5,066 nucleotides of DNA, from positions 1-5,066 of IMG/VR virus record IMGVR_UViG_3300008807_000037; one strand, given 5' to 3'. Shown here in pieces: positions 1 to 5,066 of the stretch (positions within the stretch are counted from its first letter, which is position 1; every line of letters starts with the position of its first letter). Both the position numbers and the translations under genes were made by a program. A model generated the notes under the pieces. The model worked only from the letters and a program-made list of their open reading frames with translations, searched no databases and was not told the origin of the DNA. This DNA comes from a virus.

Positions 1-99
1 AAGCTCCGGATGGAGTGCTGGAGCCATTACCTCCAGCACTAAGATTAGGATTAAGGCCAGCAGCTATAAGATCTTGAACCTCTCGCTGATGAGCAGTAT
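1..99. repeat. Left copy of a 99-nt exact terminal overlap, identical to 4968-5066. It marks closure of a circular genome with a 4967-nt unit.
   Basis: Base-by-base comparison: 1-99 (aagctccggatggagtgctggagccattacc...gatgagcagtat) equals 4968-5066. The overlap runs to the window end, and reading across it restores one continuous ORF. Confidence 0.96.
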
Positions 100-259
100 T
101 AGACATTCTTTCCTGAAAATCCATTTGACGTTGCTGGTCTTTACGACCAAGTAAGTTACCAATAAAACCAGAGCCAACCCCGGCGCCAATAGCACCAATT
201 ATAGAACCAAACATTGAACCTCCTGAAGAACCACTTAACGAACCCGGTAAACGTAGCAT
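1..259 (-). CDS. VP2: N-terminal part of the VP2 minor capsid / DNA pilot protein. The gene wraps the circle as join(259..1, 4967..4663), 187 aa in total.
   Basis: ATG at 259-257 is preceded by GAGGAATGTAT. An in-frame ATG at 265 sits too close to the SD to be preferred. The translation is MLRLPGSLSGSSGGSMFGSIIGAIGAGVGSGFIGNLLGRKDQQRQMDFQERMSNTAHQREVQDLIAAGLNPNLSAGGNGSSTPSGA.... It has a Gly-zipper hydrophobic segment followed by the MSNTA-QR-...-AAGLNP motif that I recognise from gokushovirus VP2. The frame is continuous with 4663-4967 (259+305=564 nt, 188 codons). Confidence 0.85.
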   Translation of the reverse strand, partial: MLRLPGSLSGSSGGSMFGSIIGAIGAGVGSGFIGNLLGRKDQQRQMDFQERMSNTAHQREVQDLIAAGLNPNLSAGGNGSSTPSGA

Positions 260-304
260 ATACATTCCTCAATAATCCGACCACAATCACAACAATAATA
301 CATG

Positions 305-1942
305 CTATAACCTCTTTAAGCCCGGTATAGAGTACATAGGAAGTGTTCTGGCTATCTTACCACGAACCTTTGAGTTCATCTCAATAGGATCGGCTGTAGC
401 AGCAGAAACAACTATATTTCTAGAAATAGGAGTATCAGATTGAATCCATGCAGAACCAAGAGTAGGTAATGAAGAATAATCATCAGCCATAACTTTAGAA
501 TCAAGAGAAGTTGTGTAATTAGACCTAAATTCACCAGTCACCTTATTTTGACCATAACGAAGCTCGTAAGCATACTCTTGGTAACCAAACGTATTATTAT
601 CAGCTGAAGTCCCTTGCATATAAATTTCTTTATTTTTAACAGCAACTTCTCCGAGATTAGCAAACTCAGGTTGATACCAATCATAGCGAGTTTTATAAGA
701 GAGTTCTCTTTGAAGTCCTTGTTGATAGGTAATGTTAGAACGAGCAGAAATAAGAACCATAAATACGCCGTGTTCAACAAATGAATGATTAATGCTAAAT
801 CGAGTCATAGTTTGAGAGAACTGTGCAAGATTTGCTTGAGGGGTACCGGAAGGAACTGTTGCAGAGGTTTGTGGGACAATGTGGCCATCAAACATAAAAG
901 TTTGTCCACCAAGATATTCAGGGCGTTGTAATCTAAAGTCCGGAACTGTAACGCCCCATCTATGTTGAATTGATTCAACGTCACGAGTACCACCACGAGC
1001 ATCTGCTTCTAATAAATGTTGAACAGCATAAGACTGTCTAACTTGGTTAAGAGTTGCAGCAGTTGCGCCAGAAAGATTGGCTTGTAAAATACCTGTCCAG
1101 TTTGCCATGGCAATTTGTGGACGAATAGTCTGAGTTGAACCAGCAGAATTTGTAAAATTACCTCTGATTTGATTTTCAGTATTGTTTTGCTGAAATTGCA
1201 TATCATAAGTAGTTGTCGCGGGTCTATTCCATCGAATGAAATCAGTCATATCGGCAATACCAACAACAGGAGCAGATGTACCTAATGGTAAAGATACAGG
1301 AGTTCCTTTTTGAGCTGCAGTAAGTGCAGAAGTAAATTTATCATGGCGTTTGCCGCGCTTTAAAAGAACATAATCAGTTGGGTTATCTGGACCATCATCT
1401 AGATCAACAACAACAGCATTTTGAAGGTTCTCATCGCGATAGTTTTCATTCCAAATATGATTATAAGCTCTCGCAAGATAGTTATTAATATGTTCAGTAT
1501 TAGCACTAAGATCAATTTTAGTAGGAAAACCAAAATAATCATAAAGAGATTTTGATGTAAAACCTCCAGCTCCAAGACCAGAAAGAGTAATTTTAGGGGA
1601 AGTAAGAGAAGAGTTGTCTTGAGAGGGACCAGTAGGTTGGGCGTTAAATTGATAACGAGGCCAATTAGTTTGTATTAATCTCATCGGATCAAACCAAGCA
1701 TGAATATCAAAGTAAAGATCGTCATAAAGAGTCGTAGACTGAGTTGCTAAACGCATAAGAGCTTCAACGTCTACACTAATAGTGTCACCTGGATAAATAT
1801 ATTTCCAGTAAATAGGATAAAGATAGTCAAACTGTAAACTAGTTACATGTTTTTCAGCAATGCTGAAGGCGTTTCTCGAACGAGAAATCGTGGGCACATT
1901 CGCAAAATGCGAATTGGCGCCAGTATCGGTCTTAAGATGCAT
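305..1942 (-). CDS. VP1: Major capsid protein VP1 (Microviridae F-like capsid, gokushovirus type), 545 aa.
   Basis: This is the longest ORF. Its size is typical of gokushovirus VP1. The N-terminus (SHFANVPTISRSRNAFSIAEKHVTSLQFDYLYPIYWKYIYPGDT) matches the conserved R-S-x-F-d-l-S ... lvPi ... PGD pattern of Microviridae capsids. The SD AAGAGG lies 6 nt upstream of the ATG, and the gene begins 9 nt after the Rep stop. Confidence 0.96.
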   Translation of the reverse strand: MHLKTDTGANSHFANVPTISRSRNAFSIAEKHVTSLQFDYLYPIYWKYIYPGDTISVDVEALMRLATQSTTLYDDLYFDIHAWFDPMRLIQTNWPRYQFNAQPTGPSQDNSSLTSPKITLSGLGAGGFTSKSLYDYFGFPTKIDLSANTEHINNYLARAYNHIWNENYRDENLQNAVVVDLDDGPDNPTDYVLLKRGKRHDKFTSALTAAQKGTPVSLPLGTSAPVVGIADMTDFIRWNRPATTTYDMQFQQNNTENQIRGNFTNSAGSTQTIRPQIAMANWTGILQANLSGATAATLNQVRQSYAVQHLLEADARGGTRDVESIQHRWGVTVPDFRLQRPEYLGGQTFMFDGHIVPQTSATVPSGTPQANLAQFSQTMTRFSINHSFVEHGVFMVLISARSNITYQQGLQRELSYKTRYDWYQPEFANLGEVAVKNKEIYMQGTSADNNTFGYQEYAYELRYGQNKVTGEFRSNYTTSLDSKVMADDYSSLPTLGSAWIQSDTPISRNIVVSAATADPIEMNSKVRGKIARTLPMYSIPGLKRL

Positions 1943-1951
1943 AATAACCTC

Positions 1952-2950
1952 TTAAAATTTTTCAATCGTATTTTTATTACGAAGATCATGGACGGAATTG
2001 TCATGAGACTTAATGAAATCAGGAGTCTCGTTTGTTGTCAAATGATGTAATATTACATCTTCCCATGCTGCTTCGAGTTCTTTAATTTTTTCGTCCTTGA
2101 GAGCTTTAAATATTATGTAATGATTTGCAATGTCGTGACTGGCTTCACCTGACTTGAAAGGTGTATAAAGTCGTTTTCTACCGGTAATAGGAGAATCAAA
2201 AAATTCTCCCTTATCATAAAAGTGACAATAATGTTTATGAGCTAATCTTTGAAAGTAGCGGGGTACAGGCAGTTTTTGTCCGTTGATTGGTATATATCCG
2301 AGTCTAAGAATGTCTCTGAAATGTTTTTGGAAGTAAGCTCGACCAATACCTGAGTGGTTAGATTTAGATTTTTTCTTCGAAAAAGAGTAATTAAGACGAA
2401 TGTCTTTTTCCATATATTGAGCTTGATACATAGCTGATGCTTCCGTGACATCGCCAATAGTATTAAATCCAAAGGGCCAAAGTCGCTCAAGAGTTTTAGA
2501 GGTGTAAAGGGGTATAGAGTTTTTTCGTGTAAAAATGATCTTGTCATCGAAATCGTGATTGAAAATAATGAGATGCCAATGTTTTTTTCCGTTACGTCCA
2601 TATTCATGTACATTGAAAATTTCGATTTTTTTATTTTCTTTCCGTATACATTCTTGACGTAGTCGTTTTTTAAATTTTTGAATATCTGAGTATCTAAGTT
2701 CATTATTGTAGCCTTGTTTTTTTTCGTCATAAGTCAAAGTAAGAAAACAATTTTTATCATATAGGCTAGCGTGAAGAACGCATCTACTCGCAAGCTCGTA
2801 AGATTTTTTTTTCCGGCAGAATAGACATTTTCCGCAAGAGAATACCTGCTGCGCAAATTTTTTAAAATCAGGGTTGGCAAGGGTGAAGTGTCTAAATCTC
2901 CGTTTGCCGTTACTATCCGTGTAACATAAGATTGGGTCTGCGCATTTCAT
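1952..2950 (-). CDS. VP4: Replication initiation protein VP4 (HUH rolling-circle endonuclease, phiX174 gpA-like), 332 aa.
   Basis: There is an N-terminal Cys cluster CGKCLFCRKKK. RCR motif 1 is FLTLTYD (aa 69-75), motif 2 is HWHLIIF (aa 124-130), and motif 3 has two catalytic-type tyrosines, YQAQYMEK (aa 175-182; Tyr codons at 2428-2426 and 2416-2414). AAGGA lies upstream of the ATG. Confidence 0.95.
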   Translation of the reverse strand: MKCADPILCYTDSNGKRRFRHFTLANPDFKKFAQQVFSCGKCLFCRKKKSYELASRCVLHASLYDKNCFLTLTYDEKKQGYNNELRYSDIQKFKKRLRQECIRKENKKIEIFNVHEYGRNGKKHWHLIIFNHDFDDKIIFTRKNSIPLYTSKTLERLWPFGFNTIGDVTEASAMYQAQYMEKDIRLNYSFSKKKSKSNHSGIGRAYFQKHFRDILRLGYIPINGQKLPVPRYFQRLAHKHYCHFYDKGEFFDSPITGRKRLYTPFKSGEASHDIANHYIIFKALKDEKIKELEAAWEDVILHHLTTNETPDFIKSHDNSVHDLRNKNTIEKF

Positions 2951-3010
2951 TCTGTGTCGTCCTTGATGAAGTCCGATTTTTATTAAGCTAGGATCGGGAA
3001 CTAGTAATTT

Positions 3011-3124
3011 TTACTTTCTAATGCCACCACGCATAACATATCTAACAGTATTGCTAGGGTGTTGTTTTGCGGTTCTACGAAAGACTTTTTTGTCTGTTCG
3101 TTTGTTTAAGCGTTTTCTGTGCAT
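3011..3124 (-). CDS. Small Arg/Lys-rich DNA-binding / packaging peptide, 37 aa. It is analogous to phiX174 J and to the small basic ORF of gokushoviruses.
   Basis: It is not in the supplied ORF track because it is too short. Reverse complement: AAGGAG-AGTGTT-ATG CAC AGA AAA CGC ... AGA AAG TAA, giving MHRKRLNKRTDKKVFRRTAKQHPSNTVRYVMRGGIRK. About one third of residues are K/R. The basic N-terminus, FRRTA core and C-terminal MRGGIR ending match the pattern I recall for gokushovirus small basic proteins. The SD is perfect with a 6-nt spacer, and the gene sits immediately upstream of Rep. Confidence 0.8.
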   Translation of the reverse strand: MHRKRLNKRTDKKVFRRTAKQHPSNTVRYVMRGGIRK

Positions 3125-3125
3125 A

Positions 3126-3150
3126 ACACTCTCCTTTTTAAGGAAAGTGT
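3126..3150 (-). promoter_or_regulatory. Imperfect hairpin that pairs the SD of the 37-aa gene with an upstream anti-SD segment.
   Basis: On the + strand, acactctcc (3126-3134), loop tttttaa, then ggaaagtgt (3142-3150). That is 8 of 9 pairs with one C/A mismatch. On the mRNA strand the 3' arm is GGAGAGUGU, which contains the SD. Confidence 0.4.
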
Positions 3151-3170
3151 GTCAGTGGGCATTGTATTTA

Positions 3171-3491
3171 TCAAGTAGAAACAATGCCCAGTCCTGGTTT
3201 TTGAGGCTCTATAAGTGCCTTAATATCGTGCATATTAGCAATATGCTCTAAATTTTGAGTTGTGATAAGTCCTGTTTTTCGAGAATAAGTACCAATACGG
3301 AAAATTTGGTAATCTTCAGCGTTTCTAAAAAATGGATTTTTAGATTGACTAGGATCAGACATCATGTTTGTAACCTCGCGAATAAGAGAAAGATGGTTAG
3401 GAGCTAAGGTTGGCTCTCCATAAGAGGAAGTTTTAGTATCATAAATAGTAAATACCTCAAGATCTACTTGAGTGTCTTTTTTTCCGAACAT
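3171..3491 (-). CDS. Conserved Microviridae non-structural protein of unknown function, 106 aa.
   Basis: AAGGAG lies 8 nt upstream of the ATG at 3491. The sequence VFTIYDTKTSSYGEP...NAEDYQIFRIGTYSRKTGLI fits the F-x-I-Y-D-x-K-x-x-x-Y-x-x-P ... (P/A)EDY-x-(L/I)-x-x-IG-x-(F/Y)-x-x-x-TG pattern. I recall that pattern from small proteins annotated as nonstructural or hypothetical in gokushovirus genomes. Confidence 0.8.
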   Translation of the reverse strand: MFGKKDTQVDLEVFTIYDTKTSSYGEPTLAPNHLSLIREVTNMMSDPSQSKNPFFRNAEDYQIFRIGTYSRKTGLITTQNLEHIANMHDIKALIEPQKPGLGIVST

Positions 3492-3594
3492 TTTTGTTCT
3501 CCTTTTTGTTTCGATAGCGACGAGTCGCTAATCGTTGTTGTTTTTTTCGTTTAAGGCAAGCAATACACTCGCCAAACCTATTAAGTTTTGTCAT

Positions 3595-3695
3595 GTGTAA
3601 TGTAATATGACGGTAATATGACAATAGTAAAGAGATTTTACAAAAATTCCTTTTTTTGGGCGTTGCACTGTGAACCCAAAACAAAAGGAGATTTT
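3595..3695. promoter_or_regulatory. Putative divergent control region between the - strand gene block and the + strand small ORF.
   Basis: No convincing ORF lies here. The - strand candidate promoter is TTGTAA (3643-3638), a 17-nt spacer, then TGtCATATT (3623-3615, extended -10 like). The + strand candidate is ATGACA (3618-3623), an 18-nt spacer, then AAAAAT (3642-3647). Both are weak matches to sigma70 consensus and were found by eye only. Confidence 0.3.
3602..3622. repeat. Tandem direct repeat GTAATATGAC x2 with an 11-nt period, plus a partial GTAAT copy at 3597-3601.
   Basis: Exact copies of gtaatatgac lie at 3602-3611 and 3613-3622, separated by a single g. They sit inside the putative control region and overlap the candidate -10 elements. 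Confidence 0.9.
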
Positions 3696-3866
3696 ATGAA
3701 AAATCAATATAGTACAGAAGAAAAAATAACGTTTTTCGAAGAAAAACTTAGAGAATTAAATATAGAAATCGCATATAAAGCGATGATATTAGATAAGAAA
3801 AAGAATTTTCTAAAAAAGAAAATTCAAGAATTAAAAGCAGAGAAAACTGGAACAAAAGAGAGCTAA
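3696..3866 (+). CDS. Candidate opposite-strand small protein, 56 aa, Lys/Glu-rich and predicted helical or coiled-coil. Function unknown.
   Basis: AAGGAG (3685-3690) is followed by a 5-6 nt spacer and ATG at 3696. The translation is MKNQYSTEEKITFFEEKLRELNIEIAYKAMILDKKKNFLKKKIQELKAEKTGTKES. The stop TAA lies in the loop of a hairpin terminator. The ORF fills the only gene-free gap. Caveats: it is AT-rich and low in complexity, it is on the opposite strand from every other gene, and a mirror ORF exists on the - strand. Confidence 0.5.
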   Translation: MKNQYSTEEKITFFEEKLRELNIEIAYKAMILDKKKNFLKKKIQELKAEKTGTKES

Positions 3867-3877
3867 CGCTCTCTTTT
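3854..3877. terminator. Hairpin with an A-tract and T-tract, a candidate bidirectional intrinsic terminator at the end of the + strand ORF.
   Basis: aaaagagagc (3854-3863), loop taac, gctctctttt (3868-3877). This is a perfect 10-bp stem with a GAGAGC/GCTCTC core flanked by A4 and T4, followed by aaataattttt on the + strand and by uuuuguuccaguuuuc on the - strand. Confidence 0.5.
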
Positions 3878-3913
3878 AAATAATTTTTGAATAAAATAAT
3901 AATAAGTAACATA

Positions 3914-3945
3914 GTTAGGGAAAGCCTGGCACGGCTTTCCCTAAC
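3914..3945 (-). terminator. Perfect 13-bp hairpin followed by a T-rich tail on the - strand, a likely terminator of the long - strand transcription unit.
   Basis: gttagggaaagcc (3914-3926), loop tggcac, ggctttccctaac (3933-3945). Read on the - strand, the stem is followed by TATGTTACTTATTATTATTTTATTC. There is no T-run after it on the + strand. Confidence 0.5.
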
Positions 3946-4045
3946 ACCCTATCCTGGACATCCTGATCGGCGCTCAATCGTCGCTGTTGTCTACGCTCGA
4001 CCGACAGCGTGGTCTCGCTTACGGCCACATCGTGTGGCCTTTAAT
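3946..4045. other. GC-rich structured non-coding island downstream of the VP3 stop. Its function is unknown.
   Basis: Hand count gives 54 G+C in 3951-4040 (60%), against 19 of 90 (21%) in 3691-3780. It contains an imperfect hairpin at 3982-4009 (CGCTGT-t-GTC / GAC-cg-ACAGCG), a hairpin at 4023-4039 (GGCCACA tcg TGTGGCC), and a direct ATCCTG repeat at 3951-3956 and 3960-3965. No ORF longer than 19 codons on the - strand starts here. Confidence 0.55.
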
Positions 4046-4054
4046 ACCATGAAC

Positions 4055-4651
4055 CTAAGATTGTTCCTTCGTAGCCTCCTTCTCCTGCGTCGTCGTCGTT
4101 TGTGGCGTCACTTGAGGATTAGGTTCAGGTATAAGTATCTTGTCAATTTCACTTTGTTTCAATATGCCAAGTTTAATCATCTTTTCCGCATTCGCTGGAT
4201 TATCAATAAACTTTAAGAATTCAAGATGATTTGAGAAATTACGAGTAATTTCTTCTGGTAGTTCTTCGAATGCTTTTCTAGATTCGTAAACTACATTTTT
4301 CGCATCCTGAAGAGATGGCTCATTAGAGAAATCGTGTCCCATGATTTCTTGTCGATGAGACGTTCTAGCAGCAATATAAGCTGCAACCTCATCGGGTTTA
4401 TATTTTTTCATAAGATAATTAATATCAGTAAGATGAGCAGTGTGTTGTTCAGCAAGAGTAGGACAATTTGAAAAGTCCTGTTGAATACGAAACGTCCCGT
4501 TTGGGCGTTTCGTTATTTTAACAATAACTTTATTTAAAACTTCCTTTGCAATCCTAACTCGCTCAGTAATAATCTCTCCAGTATTTTGATCAACGAACTC
4601 AGTGTCAGATACATAGTCTTCTAATTCAGTTTGTTTATTTTTTTTAGACAT
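4055..4651 (-). CDS. VP3: Internal scaffolding protein VP3, 198 aa.
   Basis: The position immediately after VP2 (11-nt gap, AGGA upstream) and the motifs fit gokushovirus VP3. These include TLAEQHTAHLTDINYLMKKY (the conserved E-x-D-I-N-x-I-x-x-K-Y type block), HDFSN..SLQDAKN and FEELPEEITRNFSNHLEFLKFIDNPANAEK. The Pro/Thr/Gln/Glu-rich tail looks disordered. Confidence 0.9.
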   Translation of the reverse strand: MSKKNKQTELEDYVSDTEFVDQNTGEIITERVRIAKEVLNKVIVKITKRPNGTFRIQQDFSNCPTLAEQHTAHLTDINYLMKKYKPDEVAAYIAARTSHRQEIMGHDFSNEPSLQDAKNVVYESRKAFEELPEEITRNFSNHLEFLKFIDNPANAEKMIKLGILKQSEIDKILIPEPNPQVTPQTTTTQEKEATKEQS

Positions 4652-4662
4652 AATTTTTTCCT

Positions 4663-5066
4663 TTAAGGTATTGTTCCACCAGATGAAGGTGGAACAGAGT
4701 TGTTATTCCAAGATTTTCTCAAAAACTTTAAAATATTATGCATCACATTTGAAGCTTCACCTTCAAGTTCAGCGCGTATCATTCCTTTTTGATAAAGAAT
4801 CTTTTTCATTTTATTAAGATCAGTGTCAGAAAGTGTCTTTGCAATATCAGCAGCAGAATTAGCCTTATCAATATCAATTTTTTGCTGGTTTTGATTAAGC
4901 TGTCTGTCCATATTGTACATAGAAACAATCGACGGAAGATCGATCTGAGGAGCTTGAGGATTAGCAGAAGCTCCGGATGGAGTGCTGGAGCCATTACCTC
5001 CAGCACTAAGATTAGGATTAAGGCCAGCAGCTATAAGATCTTGAACCTCTCGCTGATGAGCAGTAT
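4663..5066 (-). CDS. VP2: C-terminal part of VP2, open to the window edge. The unique portion is 4663-4967, and 4968-5066 repeats codons already counted in 1-99.
   Basis: The frame stays open upstream of the track's Met at 4920: ...SGASANPQAPQIDLPSIVS-MYNMDRQLNQ.... The stop TAA is at 4665-4663. The frame is in phase with the ATG at 259 once the 99-nt overlap is collapsed. Confidence 0.85.
   Translation of the reverse strand, partial: TAHQREVQDLIAAGLNPNLSAGGNGSSTPSGASANPQAPQIDLPSIVSMYNMDRQLNQNQQKIDIDKANSAADIAKTLSDTDLNKMKKILYQKGMIRAELEGEASNVMHNILKFLRKSWNNNSVPPSSGGTIP
4968..5066. repeat. Right copy of the 99-nt exact terminal overlap.
   Basis: It is identical to 1-99. Confidence 0.96.

Follow-up and report, generated by a model that had tools for sequence, protein, structure and literature searches.

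Microviruses are the most abundant single-stranded DNA (ssDNA) phages, and to our knowledge even their lysis and their takeover of the host are largely unexplained. Here we analyse the IMG/VR record IMGVR_UViG_3300008807_000037 over positions 1 to 5,066 (the window) and, within it, an open reading frame (ORF) of 56 codons at 3696-3866 that runs on the plus strand, whereas every one of the large genes lies on the minus strand. The first 99 bases of the window are identical to the last 99, which makes it a complete circular genome, of 4967 nucleotides (nt), and it is the genome of a gokushovirus displayed as its reverse complement. We regard the ORF as very probably a genuine protein-coding accessory gene, forming a self-contained unit, comparable to a moron, on the opposite strand from all other genes; it has translation signals, a frame that is intact in a family of homologues (family A) and frame-specific conservation at the protein level. 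Opposite-strand coding for the lineage as a whole we hold with higher confidence than for this particular ORF.

Genes in this orientation are removed by design in the largest comparative microvirus study, which discarded reverse-oriented gene calls on the rule that all genes point in one direction (PMC9239249), and the antisense gene slot described below contradicts this explicit assumption of microvirus curation. In the transcriptome of phiX174, antisense reads made up 0.21-0.38% of the total and no antisense protein was found; according to the same study, no antisense RNA was known from the rest of the family, and the ambisense precedent it cited was that of eukaryotic ssDNA viruses (10.1101/2020.03.05.979765). 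The locus studied here shares with phiX174 the family Microviridae and, by prediction, an RNA templated by the virion-sense strand, but differs in being a discrete unit of Shine-Dalgarno (SD) sequence, ORF and terminator under protein-level selection. Our literature search turned up no earlier report of a microvirus with ambisense or opposite-strand genes.

Morons are additional genes of lambdoid double-stranded DNA (dsDNA) phages that are inserted between conserved genes and, each having a promoter and a terminator, are expressed autonomously. The present arrangement resembles them in that a short ORF between conserved genes carries an SD and a terminator, its presence varies among close relatives, the cargo is unrelated from one relative to another and the unit appears dispensable; it differs in belonging to a 5-kb ssDNA microvirus, in occupying the strand opposite every other gene and in having a putative promoter at most. 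A further difference is the leader that is common to different cargos, which argues for a fixed expression slot rather than for independent insertions. The layout is also reminiscent of the Geminiviridae and Circoviridae, with a circular ssDNA genome, a rolling-circle replication protein (Rep), bidirectional transcription from the dsDNA form and one hairpin-bearing intergenic region. In those families, however, it is core functions (Rep or capsid) that are encoded in complementary sense, whereas here Rep and capsid share one strand and the other carries an optional gene for 56 amino acids (aa). We consider the morons and the geminivirus/circovirus layout the closest analogies, in the sense of a mechanistic likeness with no homology implied.

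The initial annotation of this DNA, made from the sequence alone, had pointed to an AAGGAG, a short spacer and an ATG of the type used by the main genes, followed by 56 codons with the stop codon inside a hairpin loop. The sequence and its predicted fold bear this out: AAGGAG stands at 3685-3690 and, after a 5-nt spacer, the ATG begins at 3696, and the stop codon TAA (3864-3866) falls within the 4-nt loop (TAAC) of the hairpin at 3854-3877. The SD matches in type those preceding the minus-strand genes, among which VP3, VP5, the gene for a 37-aa protein, Rep and VP1 each have SD and ATG, and the ORF is unique among the plus-strand ORFs of at least 30 aa in the window in having both. An SD (AAGGAG, AAGGAA or AAGGGA) is likewise kept ahead of every cargo ORF in the relatives. 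A version of 82 aa starting at ATG 3618, given both by mechanical ORF listing and by the JGI gene call, was rejected; each of the three homologues has stops within the extension, which identifies 3696 as the true start.

Homologues were found on other gokushovirus genomes. An exhaustive HMMER search of 1.84 billion representative proteins yielded P0002 (59 aa) and P0004 (57 aa), with 40% identity each, encoded on gokushovirus contigs from other samples between the Phage_ORF5 and Chlamy_scaf genes and on the strand opposite to them, hence in the same position and orientation as the ORF of the window. A fourth member, with 61 aa and 18 of 53 residues identical, lies on the IMG/VR contig L241. 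Family A thus contains, besides the ORF of the window, three gokushovirus homologues at 34-41% identity, all antisense to VP3 and VP5. When the peptide was compared with 5.8 billion proteins in a word-indexed search, the window's own gene call was the sole match; a profile built from three family-A members found no further members, and none of 50,697 GenBank phage records matched the peptide in tblastn.

In an alignment of family A made on the DNA alone, the indels measured 9 and 3 nt, both multiples of three, and the plus frame contained no stops. The mean BLOSUM62 score per aligned residue over three sequences was 2.18 in frame +1 versus -0.01 to 0.98 in the five other frames, which contained 12-35 stop cells, and none of 5000 column shuffles reached the observed frame +1 score, with or without the last 11 codons. 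With four sequences, frame +1 scored 1.72 and the other frames at most 0.45. The ratios of nonsynonymous to synonymous substitution rates (dN/dS) by the Nei-Gojobori method (NG86) were 0.30, 0.31 and 0.68, which is supportive only, because dS is saturated. The ambisense reading put forward in the initial annotation is therefore supported by three syntenic antisense homologues together with frame +1-specific conservation, and the comparison with related microviruses that it had proposed as a check found the plus frame without stops or frameshifts and no other frame preserved.

We surveyed the slot between VP3 and VP5 in 21 distinct genomes in which VP1 was at least 59% identical to that of the window and VP3 and VP5 were adjacent, counting ORFs of at least 39 aa with SD and ATG in the gap and using dinucleotide shuffles as the null. 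An antisense ORF of this kind (44-61 aa) was present in 10/21 genomes, where the shuffles predict 0.93 (P = 3e-9), and a comparable sense ORF in 0/21. The gap measured 401-621 nt with a cassette and 254-500 nt without one. Among close relatives the unit is thus polymorphic for presence and absence at a site between conserved genes, as is typical of morons. The cassettes hold different cargos: the helical family A is carried by the window, L005, L008 and L241; a family B of about 45 aa, the product of which is apparently beta-rich to judge from its sequence, by L157, by L158/L159/L160, by the GenBank record PV067906.1 and by L239 (VP1 identity only 41%); and L001, L003, L004 and L210 each carry an unrelated singleton.

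Family B provides the cleaner test of coding, since family A is too diverged. Between L157 and L158/L159, 16-17 of 21 differences affect the third codon position in the antisense frame (binomial P = 8e-8) and dN/dS is 0.03-0.045, a pattern by which opposite-strand coding in the lineage is well supported. The member in PV067906.1 (our L034) is a 44-aa antisense ORF (MKATIKIVHESKFLGKDG...) in the complement of the gap at 2766-3288, where SD, conserved leader and terminator are all present; it is unannotated in the public record. A further antisense "hypothetical protein" is annotated in the same gap of MW202895.1; as it has no SD and lies within the G+C-rich structured block, this annotation is probably spurious.

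The cargo is exchanged as a module. Between some genomes with unrelated cargo the leaders are identical to 0.82-0.90 while identity between the ORFs is that of the shuffle baseline (0.49-0.56), which places the exchange points near the start codon on one side and ahead of the downstream hairpin on the other. Every other cargo ORF has its own, differing hairpin and T-run directly downstream. In L241 the family-A unit is found elsewhere in the gap, adjoining the VP3 stop codon, which indicates that the unit of SD, ORF and terminator is mobile. TTAGGG...CCCTAA hairpins flank the cassette on both sides in L003, L157 and L158. An integron-like cassette was considered on account of the folded hairpins that flank it and was rejected, an integrase or recombinase gene being absent from the 5-kb genome. 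Outside the close relatives, the distant gokushoviruses L016, L018 and L031 (VP1 about 36%) have sense ORFs of 57-66 aa with an SD upstream of VP5 that encode K/E-rich helical peptides; to judge from these sequences, accessory proteins that are small and resemble coiled coils may be widespread in the subfamily, encoded on one strand or the other.

Several points weigh against a protein-coding gene at 3696-3866. The cassette is absent in 11/21 relatives, and family A consists of four members with saturated dS, including one pair with the dN/dS of 0.68 given above. As the initial annotation had anticipated in seeing no recognisable domain, searches of the peptide against Pfam, PHROGs, NCBIfam, PDB sequences and BFVD folds gave no match above threshold. 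The predicted pairing of SD and ATG in the leader could mean poor translation. The weakest link is the promoter of the plus strand, where a search for sigma-70 promoters gave a best match of 9/12 that is not conserved, as judged by eye across relatives. Lastly, L005 has the same DNA sequence over the final approximately 8 codons (EKTGTKES) and the hairpin, and the closest relative by VP1, L013 (= L232; 80% over the aligned part), lacks the ORF body, yet retains in its gap an identical stretch of 22 nt from the 3′ end of the ORF and, with it, a compensated terminator hairpin. The conservation of the C-terminus is hence no evidence of protein constraint; judging from these alignments, this end of the ORF and the hairpin are an element acting at the level of nucleic acid, and the gap of L013 suggests either a recent deletion of the ORF body or an ORF that grew into a pre-existing element.

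These observations also supply the arguments for the view that the plus-strand RNA is itself functional, as an antisense or decoy RNA or as the by-product of a bidirectional promoter or replication-primer region, with the ORF incidental or barely translated. The leader is predicted to occlude SD and ATG in 9/10 cassette genomes, conservation is higher in leader and terminator than in the ORF, and the 3′ end of the ORF outlives its body in L013. Such an RNA would, however, not explain why residues are conserved in one frame and indels come in threes despite 60-66% amino-acid divergence, nor the third-position bias and low dN/dS of the sister family, nor the strong SD at optimal distance in every cassette; moreover, the transcript overlaps no main-strand gene and thus has no obvious antisense target. 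We consider this explanation improbable. Still less probable is that the frame is open by chance in an A-rich spacer whose hairpins serve the main operon as terminator or DNA replication alone. The ORF region is 76% A+T and 71% purine, its low T content lowers the frequency of stop codons, the hairpin at 3854-3877 folds better on the minus strand, and a dinucleotide-shuffled gap yields an ORF with SD and ATG in about 3% of cases. Against this, 56 stop-free codons have P = 0.0027 given the ORF's own composition, with 1-8 stops in the five other frames and similarly small probabilities for each of five other cassettes, the antisense excess of the slot survey is without a counterpart in sense orientation, and the homologues keep the frame. 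Purine skew had been offered as an argument in the initial annotation; its counts (41/60 at 3701-3760, 19/60 at 4061-4120 and 30/60 at 1201-1260) were reproduced exactly, and the ORF is 71% purine on its own strand versus 46-61% for the main genes on theirs, but on its own the argument is weak.

A gene on the minus strand, namely the 54-aa hydrophobic ORF at 3912..3748, of which the plus-strand ORF would be the shadow, has very little in its favour: K/E-rich frames typically mirror L/F-rich ones and a small hydrophobic peptide is a tempting lysis candidate, but it has no SD, the minus frames contain 1-4 stops in the ORF region of the window and 2-4 in L005 and L008, and in the family alignment they score 0.42-0.98 with 12-20 stop cells. 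It is probably this minus-strand ORF that is the shadow of the K/E-rich one, as its broken frame in the homologues suggests. The possibility we rate lowest, as next to negligible, is an inverted segment or chimera introduced by assembly. Small circular genomes in metagenomic assemblies can be mis-joined; the same architecture, with conserved junctions, is nevertheless found in independent JGI/IMG-VR, ENA, Logan and GenBank assemblies, and the flanking repeats, the leader and the TTAGGG hairpin are collinear with the relatives that have no cassette. We therefore reject the shadow, chance and artefact explanations and retain an accessory protein-coding gene as the preferred reading.

The product of this gene has 56 aa and 6.6 kDa, is K/E-rich without a hydrophobic segment and has a hydrophobic stripe of the a/d type. 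The K/E-rich helical peptide named in the initial annotation agrees with the AlphaFold2 model, which consists of a single helix over residues 7-55 (predicted local distance difference test, pLDDT, 90), so that one long amphipathic or coiled-coil-type soluble helix is predicted. The best sub-threshold library matches were designed or natural coiled coils; no helix-turn-helix or other DNA-binding family was matched in these library searches. The protein likely oligomerises or docks on a host or phage partner.

The leader upstream of the ORF forms an imperfect inverted repeat, whose core TTTGGG...CCCAAA (3655-3682) is a diverged copy of the TTAGGG...CCCTAA hairpin seen in most relatives; in L008 the core reads TTGTGG...CCACAA, a compensatory change. 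Across the 10 cassette genomes the leaders have a stem of 25-31 bp; it pairs most or all of the SD in 9/10 and at least part of the ATG in 8/10, and the z-score of the fold is about -3 to -7 in 8/10. Long stems that sequester an SD and are activated by processing or refolding occur in the RNase III-processed leaders of lambda and T7 and in type I toxin mRNAs. The likeness lies in the predicted stem, the upstream U-rich arm of which pairs with SD and ATG of a very small ORF; the difference is that the peptide is highly charged and no membrane toxin, and that an antitoxin RNA is not evident. A type I toxin-like small ORF was rejected for the same reasons, as the SD is sequestered but the peptide is K/E-rich, lacks a hydrophobic segment and is predicted to be a soluble helix. 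The inverted repeat could instead act at the DNA level.

Reading along the plus strand towards the ORF, the ATG at 3594 of a minus-strand ORF with a CxxC motif is followed by two copies of GTAATATGAC, a T-rich run with the hairpin, the SD and the ATG. The GTAATATGAC repeat is kept in L001, L003, L008, L034, L157 and L158. It overlaps TTTACT-16-CATATT, which we infer to be the main-operon promoter from its sequence and from TTGACA-16-CATATT at the same positions in L001, L003, L157 and L158. On the plus strand, TAATAT in the repeats is a possible -10 element, with no conserved -35. The repeat unit may be a nick site for Rep or an operator, to judge from its sequence. In L004, L012, L241 and L242 it reads GTAATATTAC and so includes TAATATTAC, the nonanucleotide found at geminivirus origins; in virion-sense orientation it becomes GTCATATTAC, with a loose resemblance to the ATATTA core of the phiX174 origin. 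A dif-like XerCD site at the repeats was dismissed, the resemblance by eye being merely 7 nt. In filamentous phages (Inoviridae), the rstR gene of CTXphi and the repressor genes of Pf are divergent genes for DNA-binding repressors and are tied to lysogeny. These, too, are ssDNA phages with a small opposite-strand gene adjoining the main promoter and repeated motifs; however, the inovirus repressors bind DNA, whereas here the cargo varies while the nearby repeats stay constant. Because the repeats are unchanged across genomes with different cargo, the product is unlikely to be their binding protein. A scan for prophages and hosts over one genome per species (185,579 species) gave as its sole match a metagenome-assembled genome with 31% VP1 identity, and no sign of lysogeny was found in it.

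Downstream, the hairpin at 3854-3877 has a G+C-containing stem, a short loop and a U-run, as expected of a predicted intrinsic terminator, and its upper stem is compensated in L008 (gagaagccc TAA agggcttctc) and in L013. It reaches -13.3 kcal/mol (z = -4.7) as plus-strand RNA and -15.0 kcal/mol (z = -6.5) as minus-strand RNA, and since it folds on both strands it is plausibly a bidirectional terminator. The initial annotation had assigned the ORF a terminator of its own: the hairpin is indeed stable, but it is probably shared with the main operon and survives in the ORF-less L013. An A+T-rich spacer follows, then the hairpin at 3914-3949, then the G+C-rich block up to the VP3 stop. The TTAGGG hairpin (TTAGGG, stem and loop, CCCTAACACCC) is kept in 30 distinct gokushovirus genomes, some with a VP1 identity of only 24-44%; examples are L012, L013, L157, L174, L209 and L239. 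Its inner stem covaries, with 3.9 extra contiguous pairs versus 0.67 in shuffles, nearly all of them Watson-Crick, and its orientation relative to VP1 is constant in 21/24. This conservation makes it a candidate complementary-strand origin or protein recognition site; we found no description of it in the literature searched. The block at 3946-4054 includes the hairpin GGCCACATCGTGTGGCC at 4023-4039, compensated in L008 as GGCCCGCATCGTGCGGGCC, as well as a string that is conserved, CGGCGCTCAATCGTCGCTGTT. Over the VP3-VP5 gap, neither Rfam (E up to 1) nor ARAGORN gave a match, and a metagenome scan with the partly palindromic GTRATATKACNGTRATATKAC returned at least 120 unrelated contigs, with microvirus proteins in none of the matches listed.

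The remainder of the genome (Table 1) is that of a gokushovirus, with a Phage_F capsid protein, Rep, a VP3 scaffold, an ORF5/VP5 protein and a small circular genome. It departs from the rule that all genes point in one direction, given the coding signature of the plus-strand gene and of the sister antisense gene; its membership in the Gokushovirinae and Microviridae stands, because this rule is an assumed property and no taxonomic criterion. No close relative at the DNA level was found among GenBank phages. The gap between VP3 and VP5 (3492-4054) is the sole non-coding gap of the genome; the initial annotation had described it as the only gap in the minus-strand gene array, but its left part holds the conserved CxxC ORF. 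Homologues of the latter occur in L001, L002, L003, L004, L012 and L013, the version in L002 being longer at the N-terminus, and neither Pfam nor PHROGs yielded a match to it. Its start follows the -10-like hexamer by 9 nt, a spacing at which it may be leaderless. Plus-strand hairpins with T-rich tails also occur at 4487-4513 (11 bp) and 4671-4697 (10 bp), within the VP3 and VP2 coding regions; the former gave the sole Rfam match, which is below threshold (BSnc120, 23.8 bits versus a cut-off of 114).

Table 1. Features of the window, with positions as in the displayed strand (MFE, minimum free energy).
Feature	Position	Strand	Evidence and remarks
VP1	305-1942	-	PF02305 (Phage_F major capsid protein), E = 6e-127
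Rep (rolling-circle)	1952-2950	-	PF23343, E = 1e-21
37-aa basic protein	3011-3124	-	
VP5	3171-3491	-	Phage_ORF5, E = 3e-18
Basic CxxC ORF, 45 codons (MTKLNRFGECIACLKRKKQQRLATRRYR...)	3594..3457	-	No SD; overlaps VP5 start
Direct repeat GTAATATGAC, two tandem copies	3602..3622		Between divergent genes; overlaps putative main promoter
Putative main-operon promoter	3604..3631	-	-35 TTTACT (3631-3626), 16-nt spacer, -10 CATATT (3609-3604), 9 nt to ATG 3594
Leader, imperfect inverted repeat of about 30 bp	3634..3705	+	SD and ATG in 3′ arm; MFE -18.9 kcal/mol, 30 bp, z = -3.0
Shine-Dalgarno AAGGAG	3685..3690	+	5-nt spacer ATTTT, then ATG 3696
56-codon opposite-strand gene (cargo family A), MKNQYSTEEK...TGTKES	3696..3866	+	ORF, syntenic antisense homologues, frame test, AlphaFold2 helix
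Probable shadow ORF, 54 aa, very hydrophobic	3912..3748	-	No SD; frame broken in homologues
Terminator-like hairpin AAAAGAGAGC/GCTCTCTTTT	3854..3877		A-tract, stem, T-tract; terminator-scan match and fold
Hairpin GTTAGGG-(covarying stem)-CCCTAAC-ACCC	3914..3949		Right border of cassette; -23.6 kcal/mol, z = -5.8
G+C-rich structured block	3946..4054		About 52% G+C in a 37% G+C genome; from hairpin 3914-3949 to VP3 stop
VP3 (scaffold)	4055-4651	-	Chlamy_scaf, E = 8e-20
VP2	Crosses circle junction	-	

These features suggest how the slot may work. It would lie between the end of the main operon, at the VP3 stop and the G+C-rich hairpins, and the main promoter, facing the other way, so that the gap between VP3 and VP5 would hold both ends and both starts of the transcripts. 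As the packaged DNA is of the same sense as the main genes, the cassette can be transcribed solely from the double-stranded replicative form. We infer that its transcription diverges back-to-back from the main promoter, starting from a putative plus-strand promoter, and ends at the hairpin with its foot at 3877, whereas transcripts of the main operon, arriving from VP3, would terminate at two hairpins, 3945-3914 and 3877-3854. With SD and ATG buried in the leader stem, translation is probably gated, for example by the kinetics of co-transcriptional folding or by cleavage of the stem. The occurrence of unrelated cargo behind the same leader, and of half of the relatives without any, implies that the gene is dispensable for the core cycle. 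Since the cargo is small and can be exchanged or absent, an accessory role directed at the host is indicated, and host interaction (anti-host, anti-defence or exclusion) appears most likely. A more far-reaching model, which we put forward only tentatively and think somewhat unlikely in its entirety, is that of a dedicated antisense slot with an SD-occluding leader and TTAGGG...CCCTAA borders, in which unrelated mini-genes of 44-61 aa for host takeover, anti-defence or exclusion are swapped by recombination at the hairpins and expressed from the replicative form. If true, this would be the first case of ambisense Microviridae and a mechanism of cassette exchange in 5-kb ssDNA phages.

An antisense slot that is conserved and whose cargo evolves under purifying selection would mean that part of the accessory gene pool of microviruses is systematically discarded during annotation. 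These minimal genomes would have a defined site at which genes can be gained while the overlapping main operon is spared, and at least one lineage would express genes from its replicative form in both directions. The small proteins encoded in the slot are candidates for host-interaction functions.

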